32,000 nt of DNA from Candidatus Vampirococcus lugosii (GCF_018420025.1 NZ_JAEDAM010000001.1:1-32000); one strand, 5' to 3'; shown: positions 1 through 32,000, counted from the stretch's first letter. The notes: generated by a model not told the origin, from the sequence alone. Numbers and translations: made by a program.

Positions 1-946
1 TTGTATTTATTCTCTCTACCAACTCTACTACATCTATATTTTTTTCTTTTATATAATCCACTATCGCACTCGGTATTCCCGTATCTGACCAGTAAAACTG
101 AAAATTTCTTTTCAAAATTAAATTATTTATATTCCATGGATTAAATATTGTATCTTCCGAATTTCCAAAATTATATCAATTGTAATACAATTTTATTTTA
201 TCTTTTATTTCTTTTTCCTCTTTTCATTCTTGTTCAGCTATTTCTTTTATTTCTTCTTCAAAATTTTTTTCTATATCTTCCCAAGTATATCACATTATAT
301 CATAAACAAAAGGATCATAACTTATATCTTGCAAATTATTCAAACTTGAAAATATATTCATTTTTAATATTTTCGTCAAGCCTGTAAGAAAAAACATTTT
401 TATATATTGATCTGCATCTTTAATTCATGAATAAAAAGCTCCAAAAAATTCTCTATAATATTCTGCTTTTTTTCTATCTTGTAAATGTGTTAATATTACT
501 TTATCATATTCATCTATCAATACTACTACTTGTTTTCCTGTCTTTTCATATATTTCTTTTACCAAATATCATAAATCTATTTCATCTACAAAATCTTCTA
601 TTTTATATATTTTATCTTCTATATATATATTCAAATTATATTTTATAAATTTTTCTACATCTTTAAATTTATTATAACTTGCAAAACTTATATACACTAC
701 TGGATTTGTTTCTTCAAAATTTCGCTTATCATAAATATATGTATTTTTGAATAATTCTTTTTCTCACATATACAAATATTTTATCATTGATAATGTTAAT
801 GATTTCCCAAATCTTCTTGGTCTAGACAAAAAATAATAATTATTACTTATCAACAAATTATATATTATTTTAGTTTTGTCTATATAATAATAATTATCTG
901 TTATTAATTTCTTAAAATCTTGTATTCATATTGCTATTTTTTTCAT
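1..946 (-). CDS. AAA-ATPase-like domain protein (PF09820-type family; partial, 3' end runs off the window)
   Basis: ATG at 946, open with TGA=Gly down to position 1. Translation MKKIAIGIQDFKKLITDNYYYIDKTKIIYNLL..YYFLSRPRRFGKSLTLSMIKYLY.., VVLIDEYDK, YNGYNFG and FNPWNINN match the 'predicted AAA-ATPase' family. That family usually carries a C-terminal PD-(D/E)XK domain, which is not visible here. Confidence 0.75.
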
Positions 947-1019
947 ATCTTTATTTTTTTAATATTACTAAATCTTTTTCATTATATTTTTTTCTTTACC
1001 AAAATCAATATCTTTTCCT

Positions 1020-1029
1020 CGCCCGGGCG
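1020..1029. other. Isolated GC-only perfect palindrome cgcccgggcg in the divergent intergenic region
   Basis: Read directly: cctCGCCCGGGCGgga, embedded in almost pure A/T sequence between the divergently oriented genes ending at 946 and starting at 1120. Function unknown. Confidence 0.3.
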
Positions 1030-1053
1030 GGAATATATTAAAGAAATGTTTAC

Positions 1054-1081
1054 TTGATTTAAACTATATTTTATATATAAT
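1054..1081 (+). promoter_or_regulatory. Candidate sigma70-type promoter for the 1120 operon
   Basis: TTGATT (1054-1059), 16-nt spacer, TATAAT (1076-1081), about 39 nt upstream of the ATG at 1120. This is motif evidence only, and such matches arise easily in AT-rich DNA. Confidence 0.25.
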
Positions 1082-1119
1082 ATGTATTAAATTTTACTTT
1101 TTTATTTTATTTGCAATAA

Positions 1120-2583
1120 ATGAATAATACATTAGATCATTATCCAGAACATTTTAATGAAATTAATTATGACAAACAATTAAATGAACAAATTGTTTCT
1201 ATGCTTATATCAAATTTTGGTGATTGACAGTTTCAATATATTATTGATAAAATTTGAGCAAGTGTAATAGATTTTCATAATATTGATACATATACAAGTG
1301 ATAATATAGCAGAATTTGTAAGATACATTGTTTGAGATGAAAATATAAATGAAAGTGATTGAAATTTTTTTATTAGTAAAGAATGATTTGATATAATATC
1401 TGAATTATTGGAAGATGCATCAAAATATTATAAAAATTTATTTCATAGAGATATACCAAAATCTTTTTGTCCAAATAAATCTTGATATAAATTTAATTGA
1501 TTTGATGATTTTTTTTCTTTTGTAAAATGAAAAACTTCTTCAAATAATTTAAGAAATAATAAATTCAGACAAATTACTTGTAGTTTATTAAAAATTTCTG
1601 TTGTATTGAGTAATATTAGAAAAAGTGGTTTTTTGGAAATGGCAGAAAATGATTATAAACAAATATGTGATGAATATTTTGATGGGAATTGCGATGAATT
1701 TACAAAAATTAAAAAATCTGAAAATGATTATAGAACATTACCAAATAATACTTATGGATTATATCCAGTAGACTTTAATCTTATTTGAAGACCAAAATCT
1801 GAATCAAGTATATTATTAAAAATGTTATCACAATTTGAATATTGAGCAATAGAATCTATAAAAGATTTAGTTTGATTTAAAGCTGAAGTTTCTAATGAAA
1901 AAGAAGCAATTCATCTTATGGAACATATTTATTATCATTTTTTTTCTCAAGACAAACATATTTGAATAATTGCTAAAAATAAATGACTTTTTGATCATAA
2001 ATATTTTTTGGAAAACAAATATTTGTTTTGACAAAAATTTATATCTACTATACAAAGAGATATAGTATGAAAAAAATCTGAAAAAAAACCAAAAACTTGA
2101 GATAATTACAAAGATGTAAAATTTACTTGACCAGTTAAAGTATGAGATAAAACAATAAATTCTGTAGAATTTCAAATAGTTTTGGTAAATAATAACAATG
2201 AATCTTGATATAATGCACATAGTATAATGCATTGAGCAAGAGTTTTGGAATCAATGATTAGATTACAATGATATATTACTATAGCATATATGAAAAGAAT
2301 AATAAAAGAAATTTTGGAAAAAAATGAAGAAATATTACCATGATTAGAAATTGATGTTCGTATAGACAAGATATTTAATGAATTTATGAGAAATCGTTGA
2401 TTTGCATATCTTTATCTTCCTAATTGAAAAAGAAAAAAACAAGAAAAATTTATAGTTTCCAAAAATGATTTTGTTAGATTATCCAAAAATTGATTTATAC
2501 CTCCAGATAGTTTAATAGAAATAAATGATGATAGTTGATACAAAATATATAGTTATGATGATTTAGTTGAAAATAATAATTAA
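1120..2583 (+). CDS. Hypothetical 487-aa protein with a central RelA/SpoT-like (RSH / small alarmone synthetase-like) nucleotide pyrophosphokinase core
   Basis: ATG 1120 to TAA 2581-2583, no in-frame TAA/TAG, many sense TGA. Motif order and spacing resemble RelQ-type synthetases. PVDFNLIGRPKSESSILLKM (from nt 1786) resembles GRVKxxxSILEK. IKDLVGFKAEV (D at 1864) resembles DIAGLRI. NYKDVKF resembles GYRSYH. SVEFQIVL (E at 2167) resembles VEIQIRT, followed by a His about 17 residues later. The N- and C-terminal regions are unrecognised. Confidence 0.5.
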
Positions 2584-2584
2584 A

Positions 2585-4165
2585 ATGAAAAACAATTTAT
2601 CCAAGAAGATTTTAGATTTATCAGATGTAAAAAAAATAAATCCAGATAATGATAAATTAAAAATACTTTCATATTCTATTGCTGAAAAAGCACAAGCAAT
2701 AATTTTTGATGGTGACTCAAAAAAATTACATATACTTACAACTAATAATTATCCATCTATTTTGACACAAATTTTAGATAAAATTGCTGTTAAATGATAT
2801 AAATTTGAATTTTTTTATGTAGATGAAGTGTCTTTTGCTTTTGCTATGAATTGGTATGATAATTTGTATAAAGAAGAAAAAAAAGCAGAAGATTTATTAA
2901 AACAAAGAAAAACAGTTAGATGAAAATATGCGATAGATGTATTAAAAAAATTATATGAAGAAAAATCTAAATATTCTGAACAAGAATTTATTACTGAATT
3001 AATAAGACTTTCTTTTCAATCTAATGCATCAGATCTACATTTTCAACCAGAAGAAAGTGGTATAGTACTTCGTTTAAGAAGGGATTGAATTTTGAAAACT
3101 ATATTAGTTTTTGAATATCAAGAATTCAAAAAATATTTGGTAAAACTTAAATTTATGGCTTGAGTTAGATTAAATATTTCCAAAACTCCTCAAGATTGAA
3201 GGTTTGATTTTGTAAGTTATAATAAAGATGAAACTACAAAAAAAATAGATGTCAGAGTAAGTTTTATGCCTTGACTTAGATGAGAAAGTATTGTTATGAG
3301 ATTTTTGGATTCTACAAATTCTGTATTATGATTTTGAGATATTTGATTTATGTGAGAGACATTAAATGTTCTTAGTAGAAATTTAAAAAAAAAGCACTGA
3401 ATGATATTAGTAACTTGACCTACTTGAAGTGGTAAAACTACAACATTATATTCAATGTTAAACTATTTAAATACTCCCAGTAAAAAAATAATAACTTTGG
3501 AAGATCCAGTAGAATATGAATTACCATGAATTCAACAAAGTCAAATATCTGCAAAAAATTGATATAATTATGAAGATTGACTTAAAGCTGTATTGAGACA
3601 AGATCCAGAAATAATAATGGTTTGAGAAATAAGAAATTTGGAAACGGCAGAAATAGCAATAAATGCAGCACTTACATGACATTTAGTAATATCTACTTTA
3701 CATACAAATAGTGCAATAGAAACAATATCTAGATTATTAAGTATGTGAGTAAAACCTTATATGTTAGCTCCAGCATTAAATTTGGTAATATGACAAAGAT
3801 TATTGAGAAAATTACATACTTGTAAAAATAATAGAAAAGCAAAATTAGCAGAAGAAGAAGATATAAAACAAAATTTAAAATCTATGAAAGATATTAATAA
3901 AAATATAAAAGAAACTTTTGATTGATATGTACCACTACCAAGTGGTTGTGAAAAATGTGGTTCTGATTGATTTATGTGAAGAATAGCAATAGTAGAAACT
4001 TTTGAATTAAATGATAACATAAAAAATACTATATTAAATGATAAACCAGATATATATATGTATTCTGAAGCAAGACAATCATGATTTTTGACTATGAAAG
4101 AAGATGCATATATAAAAATGTTAAATTGACTTACTACTTTGGATGAAATAAGAAGAGTAGTATAA
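2585..4165 (+). CDS. pilB: Type IV pilus / type II secretion family ATPase (PilB/GspE-like)
   Basis: ATG 2585, 1 nt after the upstream stop, to TAA 4163-4165. Motifs include [34 protein letters not shown] and [10 protein letters not shown]. Walker A LVTGPTGSGKTT at 3416-3439 has both leading Gly encoded by TGA. Also present are [39 protein letters not shown] and a Cys cluster GCEKCG. Confidence 0.92.
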
Positions 4166-4285
4166 TTTTTTGAATTACTAAATAAACTATACAAAAAATA
4201 TATTGAAAAATTAAAAAAATATTATATACTAATAAATAATCAAAAAAAATAAAAAAGTATTTTTTAAAAAATAAAATAATAATTA

Positions 4286-5962
4286 ATGAAAAATATATTA
4301 AATTTTATAATTATATTTATGTTTATCACAGTAATTTGAATAATTAGTTTTATTGTTCTTTGATATTTTAAAGAACAAGAATCTATAGATGTAAACAAAC
4401 AAAATTTAAATAATATTAATTTTATTAATTTTTATTTACAAAAAAATTATAATTGAAATTATCCAAAACCATATTGAGATGTTGTATTATTAGATTCAAA
4501 TTTTAATAAAATACATTTGGAAGATTCAACAGTATCTTATGAAAATATTCCTGATTTATATGCTATTCAATGAACTACATGTAGTTTGGGTATAAATGAT
4601 GAAGAATTTAATAAATATAACTATGATATTAGATATTCTGTTTGAGAAAACAAAAGATGTTATTCTTATTCAGTATTAAATGATAATAGCGAATATCAAA
4701 TATGATATATACAAAATATAAATAATCAAAATATATGATATCTTACATGAAGTATAGATATTTCCAAATCTATAACAAAAAGTTATAATTCAAGTAAATT
4801 AGTAAAAAACTCTTCCACACAAACTTTACCATATATGCCATCATTTAATAATAAAATAATATTGGAAAAAATATCATGAAATGCCGATATTGAAGTAATT
4901 GAAACAAGTAAAGATTTAGGTAAAATTGATTTATGAAATTTGAATAATGATATTAATTTAAATGATGATGTTAATATACTTCCTCATTTAGATAATGTTG
5001 AACAAATAGATTTAAGTTTTGAATGAAAAGAATTTGTATACAAAATAATATATCCAAATTGAAATTTACAAATAATTAGTCCAAATAAGAATTCTATTGC
5101 ATCATTATCTATTAAAGATTTTTACTATGATTGAGAAAAATCAAAATTTAAAATATTAGATAATGTTTGAAGAATAGCATATGATTTTGTAAAATTATGA
5201 TGAGATTCTGATTATGAAATTAGTGATTCCAATAGTTGAGTTTTGGTTATAAGATGAACAAAATTTTCTCTTGATTCTGATTCTAAATCAAGTCTAACTC
5301 ATTTATCCAAATGAAGTATTGAATATAATTTAAATTGAAAAAAATATTTAGTAAACTCTCTAGCAAATTTATTCTTTTTTGATCAAAATATGAATTTATT
5401 AAATATAAATGATTTATGAAAAGATTTATCTAATCTTTTATGATATTCAATTGCTGTTTCTTTATTGGATTATGAAATTGACCTAGAATATGTATCTAAT
5501 CATTCTGCTTCACCTGAACTACCTACTATCATCACTGATAATTTAGAATTATCAAAAAATTTTGAATTGAATAATGATTATAATAAATATTGATTTTTTG
5601 TTTTTGATTGAAATTTAACTCAGTCTATTCAAAAAAATCTTGTAATATCTTGAAAATATTTAAATGATGAATTTGACAATATATGTAAATCTAATTGATT
5701 TAATTGACTTGCTAGTATAGATGATGCAAAAAATATATTAGATACTAAAGTTTTTTCTGATGATAAAATAACTTTTGAAATAAAAGAAATATTGAGTGAT
5801 AAAATAAATAAAAATTATGATATAATATTTAATAAAGTTTGAAATAGTCCATCAAATACAAAAATAACTTATTTTAATAGTAGAACTTGATTTATTGATA
5901 ATACTAATTATATAGATTCATCTTGAACTTGAAGAGATTGATCCGTTGTTTTTTGTAAGTAA
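4286..5962 (+). CDS. Membrane-anchored 558-aa hypothetical protein with a pilin-like N-terminal architecture
   Basis: ATG 4286 to TAA 5960-5962, checked codon by codon. N-terminal hydrophobic helix MKNILNFIIIFMFITVIGIISFIVLGYF. It is followed by NLNNINFINFYLQKNYNGNYPKP, which resembles the post-helix DLxxIxxALxxYxxDNGxYP segment of pilin/pseudopilin proteins. There is no canonical G/FTLxE prepilin site. The rest is N/S/D-rich and unrecognised. Confidence 0.45.
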
Positions 5963-6181: not shown

Positions 6182-7834
6182 ATGTTACAAATTACACACC
6201 AAATTGAAGATGAAAAAATAGAAGAAATTATACAAATAGAAGAATTATCAAAAGAAATTTATATGTTATTGAAATGAGATATTGAAAATATTGAATTAAA
6301 TCCAAATGCTGAATCTGAATTCAAAAAAGAATTAAAAGAAAAATTTGAAGAAAAAATTATATGACAAGAAAAAGCAAAAAAAGCTTTGATAGAAGCTGTA
6401 TTTAATAATATTGCACCTATTAGAAGTAAAAAATGACCATTATGAGTTTTCTTTTTTGCTTGACCTTCTTGAGTTGGTAAAACACAAATTACAAAAGTAT
6501 TAGCTGATATTTTGTTATGATCAGAAGATTATATAACTAAAATAGATTGTGCAGAATTTTCCGAAGATCATACTGCTAGGAATTTATTTTGAGCACCAAA
6601 AAGTTATGTTTGATATTGAGAACCTACCCCACTAAATGATATAAATTTATTTAAATCATATCAAGAATCAAAAAAAAGAAATTTAATTCATAGACAAATC
6701 TCAAGATTAAATAGTTTTTCAATATTATTGTTTGATGAAATAGAAAAAGCACATCCAAATATTCATCAATCATTATTATGAGCAATGGCAGATGGTAAAA
6801 TAAGATTTCCTAGTTGAAAAGAAAGTGATAACAAACTTAAATACAGTCAAGAAACTGATCTATCAAATACAATAATAATATTTACATCAAATGTTTGAAA
6901 TAGAGAAGCAATCAAAAAATCTATCGGTTTTGTGCAAGAAAAAAATGATGAATGACAAAAAGCAGATTATAAAAACAGTTTTAATAAAGTTTTTTCACCA
7001 GAATTTATCGGTAGAGTTGATGAATTTATTACTTTTGAAAATTTGAATAAAGAAGATTTATTTGAAATTTTGAAAAAAGAAGTACTAGATATATCACGAC
7101 ATTTTTGAGTTCTTGAATGAAATTTTAAATTAAATATTAGTGATGAAGTTTTAAAAAAAATTGTTGATAGATCTTTTTCAAAAAAATATTGAGCTAGACC
7201 TGTTATTAATGATTTTACTAAAACTGTTGAAGCAGATATAAATAATATTATAAATTCTTGACAATTAGAAAGTTTGTTTGATATTAAATCATTTTCTTTT
7301 GTAATAAATGTTGATTTAGATCATAATTGAAATTTTAAATATACTTTATCAAAATATAATGAAATATCAGAAGAAAATGATATAAAAAATTCTTTGGATA
7401 AACTTAAAAAATATATAGAATACTCTTTCAAAGAAGATATTGATATTGATGATAAAATTAATAAAATTGAAGAAAAATTATTATCAAAATTTGATAAAAA
7501 AGAAATATCTATAATTAGAAATAAAATTTATTCAAATATGATTCTTGATTTTGATATGATACATGAATTTGATGATTATGAATGAATAAGTATATCAAAT
7601 AAAGAAGAAAAAAATTTATTATGAAAATTTTGACGAAGAAATACAAAAACAATTGTAGATAGAAAATTAGAAATTTATAAATGAAAATTTAATTATAATA
7701 ACGATAAATTTATAGAATATATTTGAGAAATTTTTGTTATGGTAGAAGAGTTAAATGGCGAAGTACTTAACCAAAAACAAATAAAAGAAATAATGAAAAT
7801 GATTGATGCATACAAAAAATCAAGAAAAAAATAA
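6182..7834 (+). CDS. Single-domain Clp/Hsp100 D2-like AAA+ ATPase with an unrecognised C-terminal extension of about 170 aa
   Basis: ATG 6182 to TAA 7832-7834. Motifs include IIGQEKAKKALIEAV and KSYVGYGE. Walker A FFFAGPSGVGKT has TGA Gly codons at 6461 and 6470. Walker B is LLFDEIEKAHPNIHQSLLGAMADGKI. FSPEFIGRVDEFITFENL and YGARPV are also present. Only one AAA+ module is present, and I saw no N-domain, D1 module or ClpP-docking loop. Confidence 0.75.
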
Positions 7835-7875: not shown

Positions 7876-8553
7876 ATGAAAAAAATAAATCCTCAAATAG
7901 ATATATCTTGGAAAAAATTATTAATGAATGAATTTGAAAAAGAATATTTTTTGAATTTAAAAGATTTTTTGTTGCAAGAAAAAAGCAAATATGAAATATA
8001 TCCTCATTCTTCAAAAATTTTTTCTGCTTTTAATAATTGTAGTTTTGATAAAGTAAAAATTGTTATAATATGACAAGATCCATATCATTGAGTTTGACAA
8101 GCAAATTGAATGTGTTTTTCTGTAAATAAATGAATATCATTACCACCTTCATTAAAAAATATTTTTAAAGAAATAAATAATGATCTACAAGTCCAAATGT
8201 GAGACAATGGAGATCTAACAAATTGGGCAAAACAATGAGTTTTATTATTAAATTCAATTCTTACCGTAAGAAAATGACAAGCATCTTCTCACAAAAATAA
8301 ATGATGGGAAAAATTTATTGATGAAGTAATAAATATTATATCAGATAAAAAAAATTGAATAATATTTTTGTTATGGGGAAATTTTGCACAAGAAAAAGAA
8401 AAATTGATTGATAAAGAAAAACATTATATACTTAAATCAGCTCATCCTAGTCCTTTTTCTGCACACAAATGATTTTTTGGAAATAAACATTTTTCAAAAG
8501 CAAATGAAATATTACAAAAACAATGAAAAGAAATAATAAACTGGAAAATTTAA
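7876..8553 (+). CDS. ung: Uracil-DNA glycosylase (family 1)
   Basis: ATG 7876 to TAA 8551-8553. Motifs [38 protein letters not shown] and SAHPSPFSA. Confidence 0.93.
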
Positions 8554-10264: not shown

Positions 10265-10696
10265 CTAAAATAAAACAAATATAACAAAGATACTAAATAT
10301 AGCAATTAATATACCAAATAACACTTCCAAAGCTGAATGTCATATCAAATGATTTCGTTCTATTTTTTTATTTTCAACAATATCTTGAATAATAATATTA
10401 ATTATATTTTGCTGTTGTGTAGCAAATACTTTATCTCATATTACATCCCTTACAACAATACTTGCAAATACAAATGTTATAATAGAAACTGTATTTACTC
10501 ATTCTACGATAAAAACTCATATACTAAGTGAAACTACAGTTGATGTATGAGAACTTGGCATTCAAGCACCTCTAAATAAAGAACTTCGTTCAAATCTTTT
10601 AGTTTGCAAAACATCAAGCAAGGTTTTTATCAATTGTGCTAATACTGTAGAAAATACTGTTGCAATAAATATTTTATTATAAAATAATTCTAACAT
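10265..10696 (-). CDS. Divergent PAP2 family membrane protein (DUF212 / acid phosphatase-vanadium haloperoxidase related)
   Basis: ATG at 10696 to TAG 10267-10265. Has the RGAGMPSSHTSTVVSL motif (family signature GGMPSSHSA) and a GHSALEV motif, and is multi-TM. Confidence 0.7.
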
Positions 10697-10767: not shown

Positions 10768-11610
10768 TTAATTATTATACAATTCTAATATATTTTCAAA
10801 TAAACAAGCAATAGTTGTAGGTCATACTCATCAAGGAACTGGACTAATAGCTTTTACTTTATCTTTTACATCTTCAAAATTTATATCTCACATAATTTTA
10901 TTTCATTTTTTGGAAAATCATACATCTATTAATATTTGTGATTTATCATTTTTTACAAAATTTGAATTTATCAATCAAGCAACTCAAGTTGCACATATTA
11001 TATAATCAGATTGTTTACAAAAATATGCTAAATCTCTGGGGTCTATTTTTTTATTAAAAGAAAAAACTTCTGCTTCTTTTTTCATAAATTCTAATGCAAG
11101 AGGTTTACCAATCAAATTACTTTGTCATATTATAGAAATTTTTTTTCATTCAAAATCATCAAGTTTATAATATTTTAATATATTAATTATAGATTTTGGT
11201 GTAGCAGGTAAGAAATTAGTTTTTCAAACTAAATTAAGTCAAAAATTAATTCATCATAATCAGTCAATATCTTTTTTGCTAGATATTGATGAAAGTATAT
11301 CAGCTTTGTAATGCTCTATAATATTATTTAATGGTAATTGAACTATTATTCAAACACAATTATTATCATTATTTAATTGATATATCAATGACAGTATTTC
11401 ATCTATATTTTCACAATTTATATTTTCTTTTGAAAATATTTTCACACATATTCAAACATCATCTCAAAAATTTTTTTTATGATTTACATATGTTTGACTA
11501 GCTAAATCATCAGATAATAATAATATTCAAATATATATATTTTTTCATAAATTTGATTTAATAATTTTTTCTTTTATCAAATCAGATACTGGTTTTCAAT
11601 ACAAAATCAT
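10768..11610 (-). CDS. folD: Bifunctional methylenetetrahydrofolate dehydrogenase/cyclohydrolase
   Basis: ATG at 11610 to TAA 10770-10768. Motifs LSDDLASQTYVNHKKN, GIIVQLPL, KDIDGL, PATPKSII, IIGQSNLIGKPLA and ISPVPGGVGPTTIA. Confidence 0.92.
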
Positions 11611-11639: not shown

Positions 11640-12404
11640 TTAATCTCATTCTATTTCTTTTATTTGATCTCTAATAATAGCAGCAGATTCAAAATCCCGA
11701 TTTGCAATAGCTTGATCAAGTTGAGATTTTAAATCTTTTAATATTATATCTTTTTCTTTTTTGGTCATTCTTTTTAATTTTTTCATCTTGGATTTGGCTC
11801 ATATAGGAATATTTTGCAATTCATCATCACTTTTTACTACATTCAAATCTTTAATATTTGAAATAGCTTTCTGTGGAGTTATTCAATGTTTGAGATTATA
11901 TTCTTGTTGTATTTGTCTTCTACGATAAGTTTCATAAAGTGATTTAGTTATAGAAGCTGTAAATTGTTCTGCATATAAACATACTTCAGAATTAGGATTT
12001 CTAGCTGCTCTTCAAATAATTTGTATCAAAGAAGTAGTAGATCTCAAAAATCATTCTTTATCAGCATCCAAAATTCATATAAAACTAACTTCAGGTAAAT
12101 CTATTCATTCTCTCAAAAGATTAATTCAAATTAAGATATCTATTTGTCATGTTTTAAGTTTTTTTATAATATCCCAACGATCAATAGTATCTATTTCGCT
12201 ATGAAGATAATAAGTTTTATATCATTTGGAAACAAAAAAATTTGTAATTTCTTCAGCTGATCTTTTGGTCAGAGTTAATATTAATACTCTACCATCTTTT
12301 GATATATGATAATCTATTTTGGAAAAAAGATGATCAATAAATTCAGGTTGCTTTTGTGCATTTTGAATATTTGAAACTTGTAAGAAATCTTTAAGATTTT
12401 CCAT
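11640..12404 (-). CDS. uvrB: UvrB C-terminal half only (helicase domain 3 plus UVR domain), as a stand-alone 254-aa ORF
   Basis: ATG at 12404 to TAA 11642-11640. Motifs [77 protein letters not shown] and the UVR-like tail [24 protein letters not shown]. An in-frame stop lies upstream at 12432-12434. The upstream neighbour, 11 nt away, is an unrelated HAD gene. No Walker A or beta-hairpin half is present in this window. Confidence 0.8.
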
Positions 12405-12415: not shown

Positions 12416-13009
12416 TTAAATTAATTTTAAATTAAAATCATTCCAAGAATTTAAACGATGTATTTTTTTAATATTAATTTTTTCATTAATATTCCAATTT
12501 TTTGTTAATAAAAAAATTTTGATATTTGCATTTTCAACAATTTCTTTAGCATATTCAAAATTATCTTCAAACATAAAATCAGTTCATATTCTTTTACAAA
12601 CTTCAGATTTAGGTTTTGAATTTTTAGTAAAATGATTTGTAAAATGTACATCATCTATTAATCAAGGAAAATTTTTTTCTATCCATTTGTAAGTAGAATT
12701 TTTTAAACTTTCTTGTCTAGCTGTAATAACATGTAATTTATAATTATTATTTTTTAAATAAACAAGTTTTTCATAAGATCAATCTACAGGTTTAATATTA
12801 TAAGAATTTTCATGTTGCAAAAAATTATGAAAAAAATCAACAATTTCTTGATTTAAATCTTTAAATTTTTCCATATCAGATATTTTATAAGATGTAATTT
12901 CTTCTTTGTAAAGAGTTCTTCAAGCAATTTTGAATCAATTATGTTCCAATGCAGATTGTACAGTTTCAGCCAAAACTTCATCCATATCTATTCAAACTAT
13001 TTTTTTCAT
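12416..13009 (-). CDS. HAD-superfamily 5'(3')-deoxyribonucleotidase-like protein
   Basis: ATG at 13009 to TAA 12418-12416. N-terminal MKKIVGIDMDEVLAE carries the DxDxV HAD motif in the NT5C-like context. Size (197 aa) and the later ITAR and FEDN segments fit. Confidence 0.65.
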
Positions 13010-14789: not shown

Positions 14790-16883
14790 TTATTTATATA
14801 TTCAATTTTCAATATCTTCTATAAATTTATGATAAAGTTTAGGAGTTATTATTTCTTTTTCATAAAGACTATTTATTACATTTTCTTCTATTCTTAATAA
14901 AGTTTTTTCAGACAATTTAGTTTCCAAACTCATAATAGTAGTCTTATATTCATTTATAAGTTTTTTATTCTTTTTATCGGATATTTGTAATAAATCTTTA
15001 TAAAGCTCTATTATATTATCAAAATATTTTTTATTAAATTTAAAATCAGTATTTTTTAATTCATTTAGTTGATTTATAGTATCTTTAATTACAATAACTC
15101 TAGCTCTATTTCTAATATAACTATTAATAGGAGAATTTTTATCAAAAGATTTTTCAACTAAATTTTCAAATATATCTTTTTTATCAGTATAATAATCTTT
15201 ATTTCAACTAAATTGTTTTAATCAGTTTTCTAATCTAGTTTTTTGTCTTTGAATTTTTCATAATAATATTCTATAATTATTTTCATCAATCTCATTAGAT
15301 AAAAATAGTTTTTTTAATGACTGTTTTTCTATTCATAAAGCATGTAATGAAAGAGCTTTTGTTATTAATTTATATCAATCTTTTTCCGTTTTTAATAAAT
15401 TTTGCATTCATTCAATAGCAGAATTAAATTTTTTTTGATATTTTATATTTAATTCTTTGTACTCATCTTCTAACAAATATCAAGCTTGATAATTTTGTTC
15501 TAATTTATTAAAAACCTTCAATAAAGCAAGTATTATTCATTCGTAATATTCAAATTTTTCTAATGAATGTATTTCATTAATTTTTAATTTTTTCATTAAT
15601 GGTACTATTGTAAGAGATTTTATTATTAAAGAAAATATTACAGATGAAACAACTAATACTGTCAAAAAATCTTTGATACTGTATTCATATCACCATCATG
15701 ATAATGTAAGCCCCTCTGGTATTATTAAAACCATCATTAATCATAATGCTCATCTTAAACTTCACCAAGCAAGTAAATGTTGCCAACTTATAGGTATTAT
15801 ACTAGATTTATCTATTTTTCATAAAAAGAAAAGTGGAATATAAACACTTAATCATCTAGATATTATTACTATAATTATAGTAATAGCAATAATAGGAATA
15901 AATTCTAAAAAATTTATATCAATATTAACTAAAATTAATCACATAAGTATAAAAACTAAACTATTTACTAACCAAGCAGAATATTCCCATAATTTATCCA
16001 TATGTTCTTCTATTTTTGGACTAATTTTGTGTCTACCATAATTTCAAGCTATAACTCATGCTATAGCTGTACAAACTATTCAAGAAATATCTATAATTGT
16101 AAAATGTGTTATAAATTCTGCCGTTAAAAATGCAATATGTGCAAGTGCTATAGTTAAAGTCATTTCAACTTCTTCTACATTTTTTATTTTTCAAATTATA
16201 TAAGAAAATAAATATCAAATTAATCCTCATAATATAATTCATCAAAACATCATAGATAAAAAAGATATTGATCAGTTTATAAGATGAGTATTAAGTTCAA
16301 ATGAATTTCATATTGATATTTCCCGCAATATACTTACAACAATCAGAAATAATGCTAATGATGTTGCATCATTAAACAAACTTTCTCATTCAAATATTAA
16401 TGACAATTTCCTAGGAGCTCATGATGATTTAAAAAGTGCTAATACTGCTACCGGATCTATTGATGAGATTATTGCACCAAAAAGTATAGTTACTCACAAA
16501 TGAACTTGCATTCATATAAAATTTAATATATAATACAAACTATAAGCAATAGTAAATGTTGATATTAATAATCAAACAAATGCTAAAGTAAATATTGTAG
16601 TTCAATTTTTAAATAAATCTTTATAATTTATATTATAAGCTGATTCAAAAACTAAAATTGGTAAAAATACAAAAAACAATATCTCCGGTGTTAATTGAAA
16701 ACTTGTTATTCGTGAAAATACAGGAAAATAACTTAATGGAACTAATATAAGTCATATAATAAAAAGTAATACAGTATATGGAAAATTAATTTTTTTTGAA
16801 AATAGAAATGCAAATGAAGCAATTATCAATAAAGAAAAAAAAGACAAACTCATGATAATAAAATTTGCCATACTGTCTTCCAT
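14790..16883 (-). CDS. Na+/H+ antiporter (CPA1/NhaP-type) with a long cytoplasmic C-terminal domain
   Basis: ATG at 16883 (alternative ATG at 16871) to TAA 14792-14790, checked codon by codon. Multi-TM N-terminal half with FGAIISSIDPVAVLALFKSSGAPRKLSLIFEGESLFNDATSLALF. The roughly 290-aa charged C-terminal region is unrecognised. Confidence 0.8.
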
Positions 16884-18056: not shown

Positions 18057-19751
18057 TTATTTTTCCAAATTTCGTTTATTTCTATCTGGATTATAATCTT
18101 GTTTTACTTGTTCTCAATTGTTTATTAATTTTATTAACTTATCTATAGTCTTAATTTCTTTTTCAAAAACTTTCTTATCATCTCATTGAAATATTTCTTC
18201 TTTTAACTTTAATTTTTCTTTTATATTTTCCAATATAGAAATATCTCTTTCTTGAATAGATTCTTTTAATGCATCAGTATATTTTACTAGATTTACTCAT
18301 TTTATCATACTTGTATTAGCTGGTTTATTATCAATTTTTATTTCTTGAGATGTTTCCACTTCTTTACCAGTATATTCTTTATAACTTACTTGTATATTAA
18401 TATTTTCTTGTATTTGTTCTTTTAATTTCAAAAGAATTATAGATCATCTATGTCATTCAGTTTTGGGAGGAGTAGGAAATAATGTATTAATAGACATTAA
18501 TTCATTTTTATGATTATCTAATCAATAAACTTTTTCAATATTATCTTCATTATCTATATTCATTTTCAAATTAAATATCATAGGAAAAAAGTTATAATCA
18601 AATTCATCTACAATTCTCTGAGAAAATTCCCAAGCATCAGATATATAAAAATAATTATTTCATTCAAATTTTCATATTTTTTGTACAAATTGTTGTTGAA
18701 AATCTACTGCTACTCAAAAGAAAGAAAAATAAATATTATCTTCAGATGCATCTTTTACCATATTAGCTAATCATCAAGCTGAATAATCTCACATATTTGG
18801 CATAGCATCAGTAATAAAAAGAACTCTATTTTGATATCAACTTTTCATATCATCATCAAATAAAGATAATCATTTTTTCATTCATGATTCCATATTAGTA
18901 CCACCTCAATCTCTTACACTTTTTAAATGTTTTTTCAAAGAAGATTTATCTATATTTTCTACTTTTATAAGTTCATGAGCAATATATGCAGAATCATCAT
19001 ATAAAACAATTCATATTCTATCATCTTCTCTTAATTTGTCCAACATTTTTGACATAGCCTGCATAGCAAATTCCATTCTAGATTGTTTACTAATCTCAGT
19101 ATAATCATCTATAAATATTTGTTTATCTTCTTGAGAAATACATTTTTTTCATGGTGCAAAATATAATTCATTTTGAGTATCACATAAATCACTTTCATAA
19201 ATATAATCTTGAGTATTTTCATAATAATATTGTGATAAAGCTCATCACATACTTCAACTTTTATCTATTACCAAAACAAAATTAGTAGGAGGTCTTTGAA
19301 AATCTTCATCTTTTATATTAGATCATAAAGATATTTGTATCCAGTTTTCATTGTCTACTTGTCAATAATCAACTAAAGGACAAAACATTGTTTCACATTC
19401 TCAACTTGGCTGTTGAAAATGATAATCAGAAAATATACCATTATAAGTTATAGTTTCAAGACTTGGTATATGTCATTTTTCAATATTATCTCTAAAAAGC
19501 ATCATATCTTGATCAGCTCATACTTGAAATCAAATATTTTCTTGTAATGTATTAGTATCATATAAAGCTCATGGTGAACTAGGATTAATTCAAGAATTAT
19601 TACTAAATCATTGTCTATTATAAGTAGATTTAGAAACTTCTTCTTGATATTTCCAATGATCACTTTTTTCAGTAATACTAATTTTATCAATACATCAAGT
19701 CATAAAAATAAATGATAATATTATTGTAAACCATAAAATTGTTTTTGTCAT
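18057..19751 (-). CDS. Lipoprotein with a von Willebrand factor type A (VWA) domain (YfbK/BatA-like)
   Basis: ATG at 19751 to TAA 18059-18057, checked codon by codon. The signal peptide ends in the lipobox FMTGC, whose Gly is TGA. The N-terminal segment is IPSLETITYNGIFSDYHFQQP. MIDAS motif VLVIDKSGSMGG, plus GGTN and VLFITDAMPN. The tail is coiled-coil-like. Confidence 0.8.
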
Positions 19752-19849: not shown

Positions 19850-20485
19850 CTATAAAATATCTATAATCCTATCAAATACTTCTTCTTGAGTTCAAGAAGC
19901 ATCAATAATAAATAAATTTCACATATTTTGAAAAGTATCAATAACAGGCTTTGTTTCTTCTTTATATAATCTTACTCTTTTTTTAATAGCATCTGGATAA
20001 TCATCCTCTCTTTTTATTAAAGAATCAGATCAACAATATGTACAAGATTTTAATTTTCAAGAAATATTTGAAAGAGTTGCTCAACAATTAGAGCAAATCA
20101 ATCTAGATGAAAGTCTTTCAATAGCTTTATCTTCAGATAAATCTAAATATACTGCTTTATAAGATATATTTTTTTTTGAAGTTAAATCTATAAACTGTTT
20201 CATTTGATTTATTTTTCTAGGATAACCATCAATTAATATATTATCATTATCTGATAATGTAGTCAAAAAAGCATTAAACAAACTAGAAATAAATTCATCA
20301 TTAATTAAATTTCAAGAATCAATTATTTCTTTTACATAATCTCAAAGACAATTTGGTTTTGATTTAATAGCTCTAAGTATATTACCAGCTTCAAAATATT
20401 TATAATTAGAAAATTTATTTAATAACATTTTTGCTTGAGTTCATTTTCAAGCTCACTGTACTCAAAATAATACAATATTATTCAT
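19850..20485 (-). CDS. adk: Adenylate kinase (zinc-LID type)
   Basis: ATG at 20485 to TAG 19852-19850. In the P-loop LFGVQGAGKGTQA, all four Gly (codons 8, 11, 13, 15) are TGA. Also LIDGYPR and the LID CSNCG...CTYCGS. Confidence 0.92.
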
Positions 20486-25096: not shown

Positions 25097-25360
25097 TTAA
25101 ATTCTCTTTCAAAATTGTGCCAAAAGATTATATTTTTCTTTATTTTTTCTATAAGCATCTGAAACAATAGCCCTCATTCTTTTATATCTTCTAGCACTAG
25201 GGAATCTATATTCTACAAATTTCCTATACCATTTAGTTCAATAATGCTTTTGTTTTTTAGCTTTATCAAGTATATGAGAAGATCGCAATTCTTTTTTATA
25301 AAATGCAACCATTCTTTCATTAGTATTTAAATCTGCTGTTTTATACACAGTAAATCACAT
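25097..25360 (-). CDS. rpsU: Putative 30S ribosomal protein S21 (divergent, with an insertion)
   Basis: ATG at 25360 to TAA 25099-25097, 87 aa and basic. ERMVAFYKKELRSSHILDKAKKQKHY aligns by eye with the S21 core [26 protein letters not shown]. The FPSARRYKRMRAI tail also fits, as does the ribosomal operon context. Confidence 0.55.
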
Positions 25361-25392
25361 ATCTTATATTTAATATTAAATAAATAAAACTA

Positions 25393-25437: not shown

Positions 25438-25458
25438 CAATTTAAAATAAAAGCGAAA

Positions 25459-25543: not shown

Positions 25544-25563
25544 AAAAAGAACAAAATCCCAAA

Positions 25564-25911: not shown

Positions 25912-25915
25912 ACTA

Positions 25916-26113: not shown

Positions 26114-26114
26114 T

Positions 26115-26660: not shown

Positions 26661-26693
26661 ACAAAAAATTTAAATTATAAATCGCCAAGACCA

Positions 26694-26768
26694 CATCCCT
26701 GGCGGGATTTGAACCCGCGATCTCTGGCATGAGAGGCCAACATCCTAAACCAACTAGACGACAGGGAC
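26694..26768 (-). tRNA. tRNA-Glu (anticodon CUC)
   Basis: GTCCCTG TC GTCTAGTTGGTTTAGGAT G TTGGC-CTCTCAT-GCCAG AGATC GCGGG-TTCAAAT-CCCGC CAGGGAT G. The Glu-type GTCCC...TCGTCTAG pattern is present. G1:U72 wobble, no CCA. Confidence 0.85.
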
Positions 26769-26776
26769 AAATAAAC

Positions 26777-26850
26777 TACACTTGGAAGGAATCGAACCTT
26801 CAACCTACGGCTTAGAAGGCCGTCGCTCTATCCGATTGAGCTACAAGTGC
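26777..26850 (-). tRNA. tRNA-Arg (anticodon UCU)
   Basis: GCACTTG TA GCTC AATCGGATA GAGC G ACGGC-CTTCTAA-GCCGT AGGTT GAAGG-TTCGATT-CCTTC CAAGTGT A. G1:U72 wobble, no CCA. Confidence 0.88.
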
Positions 26851-26872
26851 AAAACAAAAAATTAAAATAAAT

Positions 26873-26946
26873 TGGAGTCGAGGGGACTCGAACCCCTGAC
26901 CCCCTGCGTGCAAAGCAGATGCTCTAGCCAACTGAGCTACGACCCC
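26873..26946 (-). tRNA. tRNA-Ala (anticodon UGC)
   Basis: GGGGTCG TA GCTC AGTTGGCTA GAGC A TCTGC-TTTGCAC-GCAGG GGGTC AGGGG-TTCGAGT-CCCCT CGACTCC A. The G3:U70 alanine identity pair is present. No CCA. Confidence 0.92.
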
Positions 26947-26960
26947 AATAAATTTTAGAA

Positions 26961-27043
26961 TGGGCAGAGTAGGATTCGAACCTACGTAGCCGTGAGGCGG
27001 CGGATTTACAGTCCGCTGCATTTAACCACTCTGCCATCTGCCC
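26961..27043 (-). tRNA. tRNA-Tyr (anticodon GUA), type II
   Basis: GGGCAGA TG GCAGAGTGGTTAAATGC A GCGGA-CTGTAAA-TCCGC long variable arm GTAGG-TTCGAAT-CCTAC TCTGCCC A. No CCA. Confidence 0.9.
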
Positions 27044-27055
27044 AAATTTAAAAAA

Positions 27056-27295
27056 CTATTCAACATTAACATACACATTACTAGATTCAAAATCTAATAA
27101 ACCAAACATAATCATAAAACCAAAAATCATAACAACAAATCAAAATAATATTATAGCTTGTCTAGTTCATCAAAAATATCTATTTGCCCAATCAGAATTT
27201 CATAAAATTTTAGACAAATTACTTGAAAAATAAACTAAAGACATTCATAATAATAAAACAAAAACTCATGCAATAATATTTAACAAAATTGACAT
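27056..27295 (-). CDS. Small (79 aa) two-TM hypothetical membrane protein
   Basis: ATG at 27295 to TAG 27058-27056. MSILLNIIAGVFVLLLGMSLVYF...AIILFGFVVMIFGFMIMFGLL. No recognisable family. It is flanked by tRNA genes on both sides. Confidence 0.5.
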
Positions 27296-27331
27296 ATTTT
27301 TTTATATATTACACAAATAATATAATTACAA

Positions 27332-27405
27332 AGCGGGCAACGGGACTTGAACCCGTACAGGCAGAGCTGAATTCTGCCATGCTACACCAATTACATCATG
27401 CCCGC
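27332..27405 (-). tRNA. tRNA-Gly with anticodon UCA (decodes UGA)
   Basis: Hand fold (74 nt): GCGGGCA TG ATGT AATTGGTGTA GCAT G GCAGA-ATTCAGC-TCTGC CTGT ACGGG-TTCAAGT-CCCGT TGCCCGC T. The anticodon loop has U33, T34 C35 A36 and G37. The acceptor stem G1:C72, C2:G71, G3:C70 and discriminator U73 are bacterial tRNA-Gly identity elements (compare E. coli GCGGGAA...TTCCCGC-U). No CCA. Confidence 0.88.
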
Positions 27406-27529
27406 GACTAAATGTAATATACAATATAATCATTTATTTCAAAAAATCAAGCAAAAATGACTTTAATTTTTTAAAAAATACTTTTTTTGAAAAAAATATT
27501 TTATATATACTATATATTTTATATATATT

Positions 27530-28735
27530 TTATATATATTTTAAAAATTTACTTATAATATCATTGTATACATCCATTCATTTACTTTTTAAAAAAGTTC
27601 TTCAATCTTTTGTTTTCATAAAATTATTTATTTCAAGTTCTTTTTTTATATCTTGCCAATTCTCTACTAATACATCATCAAATTTTTCAAAATTTTGTAA
27701 GCCTTCTTTAGTTCTAAGTCACATAAAAAATTTATCTACTAATAAATCATTTTTTTTCATCTCAAATATGTTTTTGTAATCATAAAATTTATTTTCAAAA
27801 AAAAATTTCCAATTTTTAGTATTTTCAAATCTTACAGCCTTAATTTCAGTATTTAATTTTTTAAATATTTGATCTGCATAATCTCTATACAAAAAAGAAC
27901 TTGCTCACATACCTAATCATAAATATTGTCACATATTCCAATATATCATATTATGTAAACTTCTTTTTCAAGATATTTCAAAATTTGAAATTTCATATCT
28001 TTTATATCAAGAATTCATTAATATTTTTTTGAAATTATCAAATTCTTGATAAACTTTTTCATTATTTGAAGTATAATTACTATACATTACACTACCAGGA
28101 AACAATTCCAATGTATATATAGAAAAACTATCAGCAAAACCAGAAAAAATAAAATCACTCAAAAATTTCTTTTTATAATCAGGAAGCCAGTTTCAAAAAT
28201 CATCAATAGCACCAAAAGCTATAAAATCAAAATTAAAAACATTATTAACTTGTTTATAATCTGTTAAAGTTCTAATAAAAGAAATTAATGTATTATAATA
28301 ATAATTTCTATTGGTATACTTTAATACCTCATCATTCAAAGATTGAATACCAAAACTATATCTAATTCTAAAAAAATTAAAATAAGTTTTATTAAAAGAA
28401 TCTATAAAATCTAAAACTTCATCAAAAGGATCAGGATTTAATTCAAAATTTATTTCTTCACAATTAGATAAATCAAAATTTTCTAATAAATTATTTATTA
28501 TATTAAAAATATTTTCTTTACCTAATAAAAGTGGAGTTCATCAACCAAAATATATAGTTTTTATTTTTTCATTTGCAAATATTTTTGAATAATAATCTAT
28601 TTGATTTAATAAACTTTTATTATATTTTCATATAAAAGTTTTTTTTTCATCAATTTTATCTACAGGAGCAATAAAAAAATCACAATAAGAACATTTTTTT
28701 TTACAAAAAGGAATATGTATATATAAAGATAACAT
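27530..28735 (-). CDS. hemW: Radical SAM family heme chaperone HemW (HemN-like)
   Basis: ATG at 28735 to TAA 27532-27530. Motifs LYIHIPFCKKKCSYCDF, TIYFGGGTPLLL, FGIQSLNDEVLKYTNR, YEISNF, HNMIYWN and GLGMGASSF. Confidence 0.88.
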
Positions 28736-28776
28736 TCAAAATAATAAAAAATAAAATAATATTTTAACGAATAATT

Positions 28777-29757
28777 CTATAAATTCATTTTATAAATTCA
28801 TTTATTTGTATCAATTTCAATATTTCAACCAATAGGAATAGTTTGTATGGGATATATATGTCCAAACTGTGCATTCATAACAACAGGAATATCTAATCAA
28901 TCCACAAAATCATTAATAGTAGTTTCCAAATCTATATCATAATATTTTAAACATTCTTTATTTACTCTACCAAAAACAATTCAAGAAATTTTATTAAAAT
29001 TTTTTTGATTTTTAATATGCATTAATTGCCTCCTAATAATTCATATGTTAGATTCACTACATTCTTCCAAAAATAAAACTTTATTTTCAAAATCTGGAAT
29101 AAAATCAGTTCAAATCAAAAGACAAAAAGTAGAAATATTTCATCATACTATAATTCAATTAGATTTTCAATGTTTAATAATTTTCAATCAATCATCATTT
29201 ACTATTTGTTCTGGATAAGTTTCAATATTAGCAGTATAATCATAATAATATTTATGAAAATTTAATTCACTTGAATTTTGTTCCAATACAGTATTTTTAA
29301 AATAAAGAAAAGTTTCCAAACTTCAATAAGTAAAAGGTCATAAACTTCAAGGTGTAGGACCAGAAAAATTAGTTAATCAAGTTTTAGTAAATATTGCATT
29401 ATTTAATGCAGTAATATCAGAATATCAACAAATTATTTTTGGATTATTTAATAAAGCTTCCCAATCAATATATGGCAAAATTTCATTAGTAAATGCTCAT
29501 CCACCTATAGGCCAAATCATTTTAATATTTGAATCTTTAATAAAACTATTAAAATCTTCTACTCTTTTTGATGGATGAATTCATTGTATAGGAAGATAAA
29601 TATTTTTTCCAAAAATCATTTTATATCAAAGATGTTGTTCAAAAATTCTTTTTACAGTATCAAATTTTGTTGAAATAATTTTTTCTTGCTCTAAATTATC
29701 AGCAATAGAAACTATTCAAATTTTATCTCAAAAAGACAATTTTGGTAATTTTTTCAT
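28777..29757 (-). CDS. LD-carboxypeptidase (peptidase S66, LdcA/MccF-like)
   Basis: ATG at 29757 to TAG 28779-28777. Motifs GDKIGIVS, RVEDFNSFIKDSNIKMIWPIGGGA, the nucleophile motif CGYSDITALNNAI, GGNISTFCLLIGT, LFLEE and FGH. Confidence 0.85.
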
Positions 29758-29780
29758 TATTTAATTTATTTATATTAAAA

Positions 29781-32000
29781 TTATTTTAATTTAAATACTA
29801 TTATTTGAGAAGATTTTCAAATACTATCTTTAATTAATTTAATAACAACAGATTTATATTGTTCTTGATCAGTTAAATAAATATTATATATATTAACTAC
29901 TTGAAAAAGTATTTCTTTTTCGTCATCACTAAGATTAGTTATTTCATCTTCAAAAGATTTTCAAGGATTTTCTAACATATTTTTTAATATTTCTTTAATT
30001 CTATGAGTTTCTATATTTTTTCAGTATATAGAAACAACATCATCTATAAATTCAAAACTTTCTAACCTATTTGTAAATGCATTCAAAACTATATTATATA
30101 ATTGTTCAGAATTCCAATATCTCAAAGTAGCCAAACGAGCACGAAGTAATACAAGTTCATCATCTGTTAATTCTTGACCTATATATTTTTCCAATTCTTC
30201 TTGTGATAAAATAAATCAATATTTAGCACCTATATTATTGCTTGAAACAAATTCAATATATCAATCTTCAATTAATTTAGCAAGCATACTAATAGCTCAA
30301 TGTTCTTCTATTTTTCAATTTGAATCAAGTTTTGCAAAAAATCTATCAAATAAACTCATATTTCACTGCCCCATAACAACTGTTCAAATATTTGGATCAA
30401 TAGCTAAGTAATCCATTTTTTGATCTTTTAATCTAAGATATGAATTACAAGTATCATTATCTGAAAACATTTCCCAAAGCCAAGTAAGAAATTGATCATA
30501 TTTTATATATTTTTGATTATCAACAAAATATCTAGCATAAGTTCATGCAATATATACTCATTCTGATTTATCTCTATTATTTACTAAATTCAAAAATTTA
30601 TAATAATGTCAAAACTGTCTATCAAAAACATCATCAGATGTATAAGGCATAATTTTATTATTTTCAACTTTTCAAGATTCATTATATGTTTGTTCTTGTC
30701 AAATTCATTGTTTGTACCACATAAATGGTCAAGATCATCATTGTTCTTGAATTCTAATAAAATTTAACAAAAGCATAAAAAATCAATAAACCAAAAAGAA
30801 ATATATATAAATATTTAATAATTTATTTTTATCATTATACTCAATTTGTCATATTCTATAAAGAAAAGAAATAAATCATAATATAGTCCATAAAATAAGT
30901 CATAATCAATACCAAAGTATTCATCATCATATAAAAAACCATATAGTCCAAAGCAATAAAGTAACAAATAAAATAGATAACAAATATCTATCAAATTTAG
31001 CTATAGCATAAAGAATAGCAAAAATTAATGTAAAAAGAATAATAAGCCAAATATATCATATATCGGTATAATAACTACTTTCATTACTCAAAGACCAATT
31101 AAAAGTAATATTAAAAGGAACTAAATATTTATATGGAATATGAATATTATCTACACTTATATTTAATTCTTTTAATTCTTGAATTTCTGAAGAAAAATTT
31201 TTAATTATTTCCTCATTTGAAATATTTTCATAAAATCTATTATCATCATTAACTATACTATATAAAACATCATAAACTCTAGATCAAGAATTTACATTAT
31301 TATATAAATTTAATATTTTTTCATAAGTTAATTCATTAATATCATTAATAACAGGATAAGTATAATCTTCTCTCAATATAGAATTATCTTTATAAAAATC
31401 TTCTAATTCTTGAATTTCTCAAGAAAATGTATTAATAATGTCTTTATTTGAAATATTTTCAGAAAAATCATCAGAATTATATATATTAGATACTACATCA
31501 TAAACTTTAGAATTACTAGAAATATTATTATATAAATAAGATATTTTATCATAAGTAATATGATTTTTATCATATAAATTTGCACAAACTAAATTTGAAC
31601 TAGAATTAAATCACATACACTTATTTCAAGAAGGGAAAAATATTCACCACCAAGGATATTTAAATTTTCTCTGACCATATCAAATATATCTACCAACATC
31701 TTCTGCATAAGTATCACCTGGTGCTTTTGATATATTTTCATACAAAGAATCTTTATTATCTAAATTTGATAAACTACAAGAATTTATTCAATTATAAAGA
31801 TCTTCAGGATTATTAGTTGATGCAAACAATACTGGCTCAGTATTTCAAGATTTATTATTTTCTAAATCCTTTTCTAAATCAGTTGATGATTGTGATAAAA
31901 AAACTCTTTCAATAAATTTTACTGCTTCAAAATCATTTCATTTACTATAATCTACATAAAAAACATATGTTCATTTAAGAATTAACAATGTAAAAATAAA
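29781..32000 (-). CDS. Large multi-pass membrane protein, function unknown (partial; 5' end beyond window)
   Basis: Open with TGA=Gly from 32000 down to TAA 29783-29781 (739 codons seen). A soluble N/S-rich region with two repeated modules comes first. It is followed by a cluster of TM helices (IWLIILFTLIFAILYAI, LLSILFVTLLLWTIWFFIGGGILWYGLGLILWTILGFISFLY, IYIYFFLVYGFFMLLLNF) and a soluble C-terminal domain of about 330 aa. Confidence 0.6.
31170..31562 (-). repeat. Internal tandem duplication (period 231 nt / 77 codons) inside the large membrane protein gene
   Basis: ttcttgaatttct occurs at 31176 and 31407, and atttgaaatattttca recurs in both copies. Protein modules: ITYDKISYLYNNISSNSKVYDVVSNIYNSDDFSENISNKDIINTFSGEIQELEDF versus LTYEKILNLYNNVNSGSRVYDVLYSIVNDDNRFYENISNEEIIKNFSSEIQELKEL. 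Confidence 0.7.

Follow-up and report, generated by a model that had tools for sequence, protein, structure and literature searches.

We analysed the first 32,000 nucleotides (the window) of contig NZ_JAEDAM010000001.1 (GCF_018420025.1) from Candidatus Vampirococcus lugosii, with regard to the genetic code that it uses and in particular to the meaning of UGA, CGA and CGG. The window represents 32 kb of a 1.3-Mb genome, and has a guanine-plus-cytosine (GC) content of 21.8%. The species is placed by NCBI in Candidatus Absconditibacteriota (GTDB class JAEDAM01; candidate phyla radiation), and the closest homologues of the window genes were found in Gracilibacteria and Absconditabacterales genomes. 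We identified 36 protein-coding genes, including those for a PilB-type ATPase, a Clp-like ATPase, UvrB-like, FolD and DUF212 proteins, a Na+/H+ exchanger and several ribosomal proteins, and 6 tRNA genes, one of which has the anticodon UCA (Table 1). Taken together, the comparisons below argue for a code in which UGA encodes glycine, UAA and UAG are the stops, and CGA and CGG would encode tryptophan.

An earlier note on this DNA, made from the sequence alone, had stated that the standard code yields only short open reading frames (ORFs) here, and that treating TGA as a sense codon reveals 36 contiguous genes ending in TAA or TAG; both statements hold. Under table 11, we found 10 stop-to-stop ORFs of at least 100 amino acids, summing to 3,990 nucleotides and reaching at most 184 amino acids, versus 59 such ORFs, of up to 740 amino acids, with TGA as sense. 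ORF length was dropped as a sole criterion, because in AT-rich DNA treating TAA as sense also raises the count (87 ORFs of at least 100 amino acids in this control, but none longer than 419), and the decisive evidence therefore lies in gene tiling and in homology. ORFs of at least 150 amino acids occupy 3% of the window under table 11 and 93% with TGA as sense, and the 36 genes, once shadow ORFs had been removed and the short genes for L36, IF-1 and L35 added, tile 92.3% of it. These genes contain neither TAA nor TAG in frame, while the out-of-frame counts are 751 for TGA, 1175 for TAA and 495 for TAG. The 35 genes whose 3' end lies inside the window terminate in TAA (30) or TAG (5). In-frame UGA is accordingly frequent in conserved genes, and gene ends are formed by UAA and UAG only.

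TGA occupies glycine positions in a series of characteristic motifs (Table 1). The PilB Walker A sequence aligns with TGPTGSGKS of Thermus PilF (5oiu), and the tryptophan of the HemW IYWN motif is encoded by TGG. The motifs that the earlier note had read in PilB, the Clp-like protein, adenylate kinase (Adk), uracil-DNA glycosylase (Ung), FolD, L36 and HemW were all found exactly as described. Its lipobox MTGC does carry a TGA glycine, but had been misplaced to 19751, which is the start of the gene and not the position of the motif.

Table 1. Coordinates of the genes, motifs, tRNA and rare codons of the window, positions being counted from its first nucleotide.
Feature	Position	Strand	Details
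Protein-coding genes (n = 36, two cut by the window ends)	1..32000	both	506 in-frame TGA; Pfam annotation of translations
PilB Walker A, TGPTGSGKT	3413..3439	+	ACT TGA CCT ACT TGA AGT GGT AAA ACT; Gly 1-2 TGA, Gly 3 GGT
Clp-like AAA+ Walker A, AGPSGVGK	6458..6481	+	GCT TGA CCT TCT TGA GTT GGT AAA; two Gly TGA
Adenylate kinase P-loop, GVQGAGKGT	20438..20464	-	4/4 Gly TGA
FolD, PVPGGVGP	10819..10842	-	three Gly TGA; aligns to PVPGGVGP of FolD 3p2o
Ung, GQDPYH	8071..8088	+	Gly TGA
Lipobox-like MTGC, VWA-domain protein	19692..19703	-	Gly TGA; gene start 19751
Ribosomal protein L36, final sense codon	24418..24420	-	TGA, then TAA
tRNA, anticodon UCA, read as tRNA-Gly(UCA), putative UGA decoder	27332..27405	-	ARAGORN, Rfam RF00005
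CGA, Na+/H+ exchanger codon 58	16710..16712	-	Trp-like; TGG in two closest relatives; Phe in 26/27 standard-code orthologues
CGG, Na+/H+ exchanger codon 187	16323..16325	-	membrane segment; clade Leu/Ile/Phe/Val; standard-code orthologues Ile 7, Leu 5, Arg 4
CGA, DUF212 codon 37	10586..10588	-	Trp-like; CGA in L085, L086; TGG in L087; Trp 36, Leu 22, Phe 19 of 136
CGA, DUF212 codon 114	10355..10357	-	Trp-like; CGA in L085, L086; TGG in L087; Leu 86, Phe 16, Val 11 of 136
CGA, Clp-like ATPase (g05) codon 306	7097..7099	+	Trp-like; TGG in L088, L089, L090 (3/3 relatives read)
CGA, Clp-like ATPase codon 485	7634..7636	+	Trp-like; CGA in L088, L090; TGG in L089
CGG, UvrB C-terminal fragment codon 236	11697..11699	-	UVR motif; Leu in the Protein Data Bank UvrB chains listed (AELQFERAA, KALDFERAA)
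CGA, AAA-ATPase_like protein codon 75	722..724	-	
CGA, VWA protein codon 560	18072..18074	-	C-terminal tail
CGA, codon 26 of 87-amino-acid ORF after rplU	25283..25285	-	
Na+/H+ exchanger gene	14790..16883		34 TGA columns
TGA, Na+/H+ exchanger codon 94	16602..16604	-	TGG kept in code-25 Gracilibacteria relatives
uvrB-like gene	11640..12404	-	C-terminal part only
NT5C-like nucleotidase gene	12416..13009	-	directly upstream of uvrB-like gene
Basic ORF of 87 amino acids	25097..25360	-	directly downstream of rplU (L21)
PilB-type ATPase gene	2585..4165	+	
Large gene flanking pilB	1120..2583	+	
Large gene flanking pilB	4286..5962	+	N-terminal membrane segment in product

We investigated which amino acid TGA encodes by comparison with homologues, TGA being masked as X before every comparison, and later CGA and CGG too, to avoid circularity. 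All hits of a word-index protein search with the exchanger belonged to the same clade, mostly with tryptophan at TGA, and this search was circular for the codon; the DNA of the relatives and standard-code outgroups were therefore used instead. The corresponding scan, with one genome per species, yielded 80 loci, from 77 of which the exchanger gene was extracted (27 standard-code and 50 with TGA as sense). In the sequences of solved structures from standard-code bacteria, glycine lies opposite 34 of the 53 TGA sites of PilB, FolD and UvrB, and tryptophan opposite none. Similarly, across the TGA columns of the exchanger, glycine makes up 56% of the residues in the 27 standard-code orthologues (background 6%) and tryptophan 0%; 20 of the 34 columns have a glycine majority, and in most of those 20 glycine is invariant. 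Four of the five TGA columns of the DUF212 gene contain glycine in 114-133 of 136 family representatives. When the conserved outgroup columns of three genes were pooled, TGA was found opposite glycine in 30 of 36, and every other well-sampled codon was standard in meaning.

The converse comparison gave the same picture. At 16 exchanger columns with glycine in 25 or more of the 27 standard-code orthologues, the codons of 52 code-25 genomes are TGA in 565 cases, GGN in 260 and TGG in one. These alignments, which never place a tryptophan majority at a TGA column, bear out the reading of UGA that the earlier note had drawn from motifs, and on this comparative evidence UGA is confirmed as a glycine sense codon, being neither tryptophan nor stop.

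We additionally identified a candidate decoder. The earlier note had named the lack of a UGA-decoding tRNA, together with an intact release factor 2 gene, as a finding that would refute its reading; a tRNA that would decode UGA does lie in the window. It has the anticodon UCA, and because of that anticodon ARAGORN labels it "SeC". In Rfam it scores 56 bits against the ordinary tRNA model (RF00005); its acceptor stem has 7 bp and its anticodon stem 5 bp, and the variable loop is short. Its acceptor end contains G1:C72, C2:G71, G3:C70 and the discriminator U73, the bacterial glycine identity set, and the same acceptor pairs with U73 are the criteria used for tRNA-Gly(UCA) by Shulgina and Eddy (PMC8629427). 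The anticodon loop is unusual (A32, G37, C38), and CCA is not encoded. Another tRNA(UCA) that shares this acceptor set, likewise labelled "tRNA-SeC", was found by chance in a Gracilibacteria locus (L017:21944-22022); it has C32, A37 and C38, and an encoded CCA.

A few points limit the reading of UGA as glycine. Proteomic support for this meaning comes from a BD1-5 relative only (PMC4032931), and U34 of tRNA-Gly(UCA) might, in principle, accept UGG as well. At codon 94 of the exchanger, where V. lugosii has TGA, code-25 Gracilibacteria relatives keep TGG, and this is the type of site at which ambiguous decoding of UGA and UGG would appear. The nearest relatives have TGA and TCT at this codon, so that a real substitution probably accounts for the mismatch, from tryptophan to a small residue via a single G-to-A step.

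For glycine codon usage, the 9,836 codons of the window contain 506 TGA, 80 GGT, 23 GGA, 5 GGC and 6 GGG, besides 59 TGG. TGA thus accounts for 82% of TGA and GGN taken together (506 versus 114), ranks seventh among all codons, and represents approximately 5% of them, in agreement with the dominance previously proposed; the count of 26 TGA against 5 GGT in pilB, previously made by hand, was also reproduced. The share is 0.77 in genes for ribosomal proteins and initiation factors, and 0.83 elsewhere in the window.

We compared this share across the clade, using ORFs of at least 150 amino acids from 52 recoded (code-25) loci. TGA makes up 0.62-0.83 of the glycine codons in loci of 21-24% GC, 0.35-0.65 in those of 26-29%, and 0.20-0.65 above 31%, where 5 of 8 loci lie at 0.20-0.33. 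The share falls with rising GC, with a Spearman coefficient of -0.87 locus-wide and -0.56 at invariant glycine sites. Loci L021, L069 and L019 reach 0.82-0.83, and Candidatus Absconditicoccus praedator 0.67 at 28% GC. With its 82%, the window is no outlier and occupies the upper end of a gradual trend; dominance of TGA is usual in low-GC members of the clade. Thus, TGA is indeed the main glycine codon here, as the earlier note held, but not as a peculiarity of this contig. A passage of PMC10746230, citing Campbell et al. 2013, mentions "high usage of TGA as a glycine codon" in code-25 bacteria; in the literature searched we found no paper that gives the dependence of the TGA share on GC, or the 80% figure. 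Mutation pressure towards AT, at 21.8% GC, may have shifted most glycine codons from GGN to UGA, since TGA, once synonymous with GGN, contains a single G or C, as against two in GGA and GGT.

The codons CGA and CGG are rare in the window (8 CGA and 2 CGG among the 9,836), in which AGA is the main arginine codon. A tblastn search of the 36 masked proteins against 87 loci identified orthologues for 8 genes, and none for g01, g17 and g29, which hold three CGA codons, so that the comparison covered 7 of the 10 sites. The genes around the exchanger are arranged differently in its closest relatives, and a single locus could therefore not be used for comparing several genes. At 4 of the 7 compared sites the codon lies opposite TGG in relatives, and the other 3 fall on hydrophobic or aromatic columns (Table 1); none of the 7 lies on a conserved arginine column. 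In column 37 of DUF212, arginine is not among the top residues of the 136 family representatives. In this gene CGA is kept as a codon across three genomes, of 60-69% protein identity, where a standard-code relative has TGG; L085 in Table 1 is A. praedator, and L087 the standard-code relative, which has GGN where the others carry TGA. The AGA and AGG codons of these alignments, by comparison, fall opposite arginine or lysine.

The exchanger alignment extends this comparison to other genomes. CGA or CGG occurs on invariant tryptophan columns in the Absconditabacterales-type loci L075, L077, L053 and L071, and in the low-GC loci L018 and L049, which are labelled "Gracilibacteria". In the higher-GC loci L014 and L024, CGA stays on invariant arginine columns, while in L016 its column is dominated by lysine, and in L015 it falls on columns that are non-hydrophobic or unaligned. 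The meaning of CGA thus seems, from these alignments, to differ by lineage inside the clade in which UGA is glycine. For V. lugosii, the column evidence lends good but not conclusive support to an extension of the CGA/CGG to tryptophan reassignment to this species, and both codons would then have a reassigned tRNA as their decoder, with its gene outside the window.

We weighed several other readings against these data. If UGA were tryptophan (table 4), as it is in mycoplasmas and several insect symbionts, the low GC content and small genome of V. lugosii would be of a familiar kind, and the tryptophan placed at TGA by automated pipelines (the Logan entries) and in most of the relatives' database proteins would be correct. 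Conserved tryptophan columns are nonetheless TGG, and the tRNA(UCA) combines U73 with a GCG acceptor end, the tryptophan marker in PMC8629427 being G73. Table 4 would also raise tryptophan to 5.7% of residues, which we judged implausible, and leave glycine at 1.2%, versus the 6.3% that it reaches with UGA as glycine. As no TGA column has a tryptophan majority in any standard-code comparison, and tryptophan stands at 0% in these columns, we regard table 4 as refuted, with a negligible residual probability. Alternatively, UGA could be a stop or selenocysteine codon under the standard code, in which case the window would consist of pseudogenes, or the tRNA(UCA) would be a tRNA-Sec; short ORFs under table 11 and the "tRNA-SeC" output of ARAGORN would both be expected. 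This is contradicted by 506 in-frame TGA in 36 genes, with full-length homology through TGA and no in-frame TAA or TAG, and by a tRNA that fits RF00005, its acceptor stem being of 7 bp and its variable loop short, where tRNA-Sec has a long extra arm. TGA also lies on glycine columns and not on cysteine or selenocysteine columns. With neither the architecture of tRNA-Sec nor a rare UGA at cysteine or selenocysteine sites in evidence, the standard code, with or without selenocysteine, is likewise refuted and has next to no probability.

The remaining alternative is plain table 25, in which UGA is glycine and CGA and CGG stay arginine, and it is with this table that NCBI translates the genome, so that its V. 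lugosii proteins have arginine at these codons. Several points weigh on this side and against tryptophan: that reading rests on 7 codons in the window, a sample made small by the rarity of CGA and CGG (10 of 9,836); arginine occurs in 4 of 27 outgroups at codon 187 of the exchanger, where CGG is weakly compatible with tryptophan; and at codon 306 of the Clp-like protein, a variable surface position, distant ClpC outgroups have lysine 40, glutamate 9 and arginine 7 times. Neither a tRNA(UCG) nor a tRNA(CCG), moreover, was found in the window, with its 6 tRNA genes, or in the loci of code-25 relatives that were scanned. Unchanged arginine codons would, however, have to account for TGG opposite 4 of the 7 sites with leucine, isoleucine, phenylalanine or tryptophan columns at the others, for CGA shared by three genomes where the standard-code relative uses TGG, and for the difference from AGA and AGG. 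We thus consider plain table 25 improbable. The "table 25" of the earlier note stands for UGA and falls short for the rest of the table, as the codons other than UGA are not all standard, owing to CGA and CGG at the 7 compared sites. Since these lie on tryptophan or hydrophobic columns, table 25 appears incomplete for V. lugosii. The reading that we prefer, to which we assign a probability of about 0.93, is that its actual code is table 25 with CGA and CGG as tryptophan, UGA as glycine with a dedicated tRNA-Gly(UCA), and UAA and UAG as stops.

The translations already in public databases conflict with one another. With UGA as glycine, our sequences of S11, Adk, L20 and S13 are identical to the NCBI proteins of Ca. 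V. lugosii, encoded on a 58,480-bp contig. The same genes are also public with tryptophan at TGA, in Logan assemblies called with code 4 (entries P0001-P0008), and this version also prevails among the clade relatives in the large protein database. The NCBI table-25 proteins of V. lugosii have arginine at all ten CGA and CGG codons.

We additionally noted features of individual genes (Table 1). The uvrB-like gene encodes the C-terminal part of the protein only (helicase C domain, UvrB domain and UVR motif), aligning to residues ~431-656 of full-length UvrB structures. The gene directly upstream encodes an NT5C-like nucleotidase, and there is consequently no adjacent N-terminal half; possible readings of the uvrB-like gene are a split gene, a remnant and a fragment standing on its own. 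The basic ORF of 87 amino acids downstream of rplU occupies the usual place of rpmA (L27), contains one CGA, and gave no Pfam match even at E = 1, bar a chance-level GNAT hit. The PilB-type ATPase gene lies between two large genes without Pfam matches, which may belong to a pilus or cell-surface apparatus, a feature emphasised in the V. lugosii genome paper (PMC8080830).

For the genome as a whole, the choice of translation table decides readability, as the contrast of 3% and 93% of the window in ORFs of at least 150 amino acids illustrates. By present evidence neither public translation, with tryptophan at UGA or with glycine at UGA and arginine at CGA and CGG, is fully right, and conflicting translations affect homology searches, structure prediction and proteomics for the clade. 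If CGA and CGG are tryptophan, the "table 25" label and the public annotation are incomplete, and each CGA and CGG is mistranslated in the public table-25 proteome of V. lugosii. The takeover of the glycine family by TGA, a former stop codon, depends on GC and would provide a clean quantitative case of mutation pressure changing codon usage after a reassignment. GGC, GGG and GGA (5, 6 and 23 of 9,836 codons) would be nearing the rarity that preceded the capture of CGA and CGG. It is conceivable, but on balance unlikely, that in the lowest-GC members of the clade the glycine box, nearly emptied by the former stop codon, is next to lose a decoder or to change meaning, V. lugosii being in the course of a serial, AT-driven remodelling of its code. 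Nothing here is categorically new beyond published work on Absconditabacteria and Gracilibacteria; the added value lies in the figures for TGA takeover against GC, in the location of tRNA-Gly(UCA), and in the evidence for CGA and CGG as tryptophan in V. lugosii.

Table 25, the Candidate Division SR1 and Gracilibacteria code, reportedly goes back to Campbell et al. 2013 and Rinke et al. 2013. Proteomic support for it was given by Hanke et al. 2014 (PMC4032931), and the V. lugosii genome paper of 2021 describes a reassignment of UGA to glycine that this species shares with other Absconditabacteria and Gracilibacteria (PMC8080830). UGA as glycine in V. lugosii and its clade is therefore already published, and our finding restates a known property; the link to these lineages made in the earlier note is sound, V. 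lugosii being an Absconditabacterium. The release factor 2 (RF2) gene prfB was undetected in any available BD1-5 genome (PMC6851277), RF2 loss has been called a hallmark of UGA reassignments (gTranslate preprint), and the V. lugosii genome paper contains no mention of it (PMC8080830). RF2 would presumably be absent here too, as the clade reports have it. CGA and CGG as tryptophan were predicted for Absconditabacteria with Codetta by Shulgina and Eddy 2021 (PMC8629427), and are treated as established for Absconditabacterales in PMC13092985. In the literature searched, we found no paper applying this reassignment to V. lugosii.

In table 4, the code of Mycoplasmatales, Entomoplasmatales and insect endosymbionts, the reassignment of UGA accompanies the loss of RF2. 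The window resembles these systems in its reassigned UGA, its low GC and its tRNA with the anticodon UCA, and differs from them in that UGA is glycine and the tRNA has glycine and not tryptophan identity elements. With table 25 it shares UGA as glycine, a tRNA-Gly(UCA) with the glycine acceptor set, UAA and UAG as sole stops, and a small, low-GC genome from the candidate phyla radiation, V. lugosii belonging to the Absconditabacteria for which the table is named in part as SR1; UGA is identical in both, whereas table 25 leaves CGA and CGG as arginine, unlike the window. Finally, for the Absconditabacteria code with CGA and CGG as tryptophan, the expected tRNA(UCG) or tRNA(CCG) of tryptophan-like identity, with G73 and without A20, is not among the tRNAs of the window, which otherwise matches that code in the rarity of CGA (8) and CGG (2), their position on tryptophan or hydrophobic columns, AGA as the main arginine codon, and a very low GC content.

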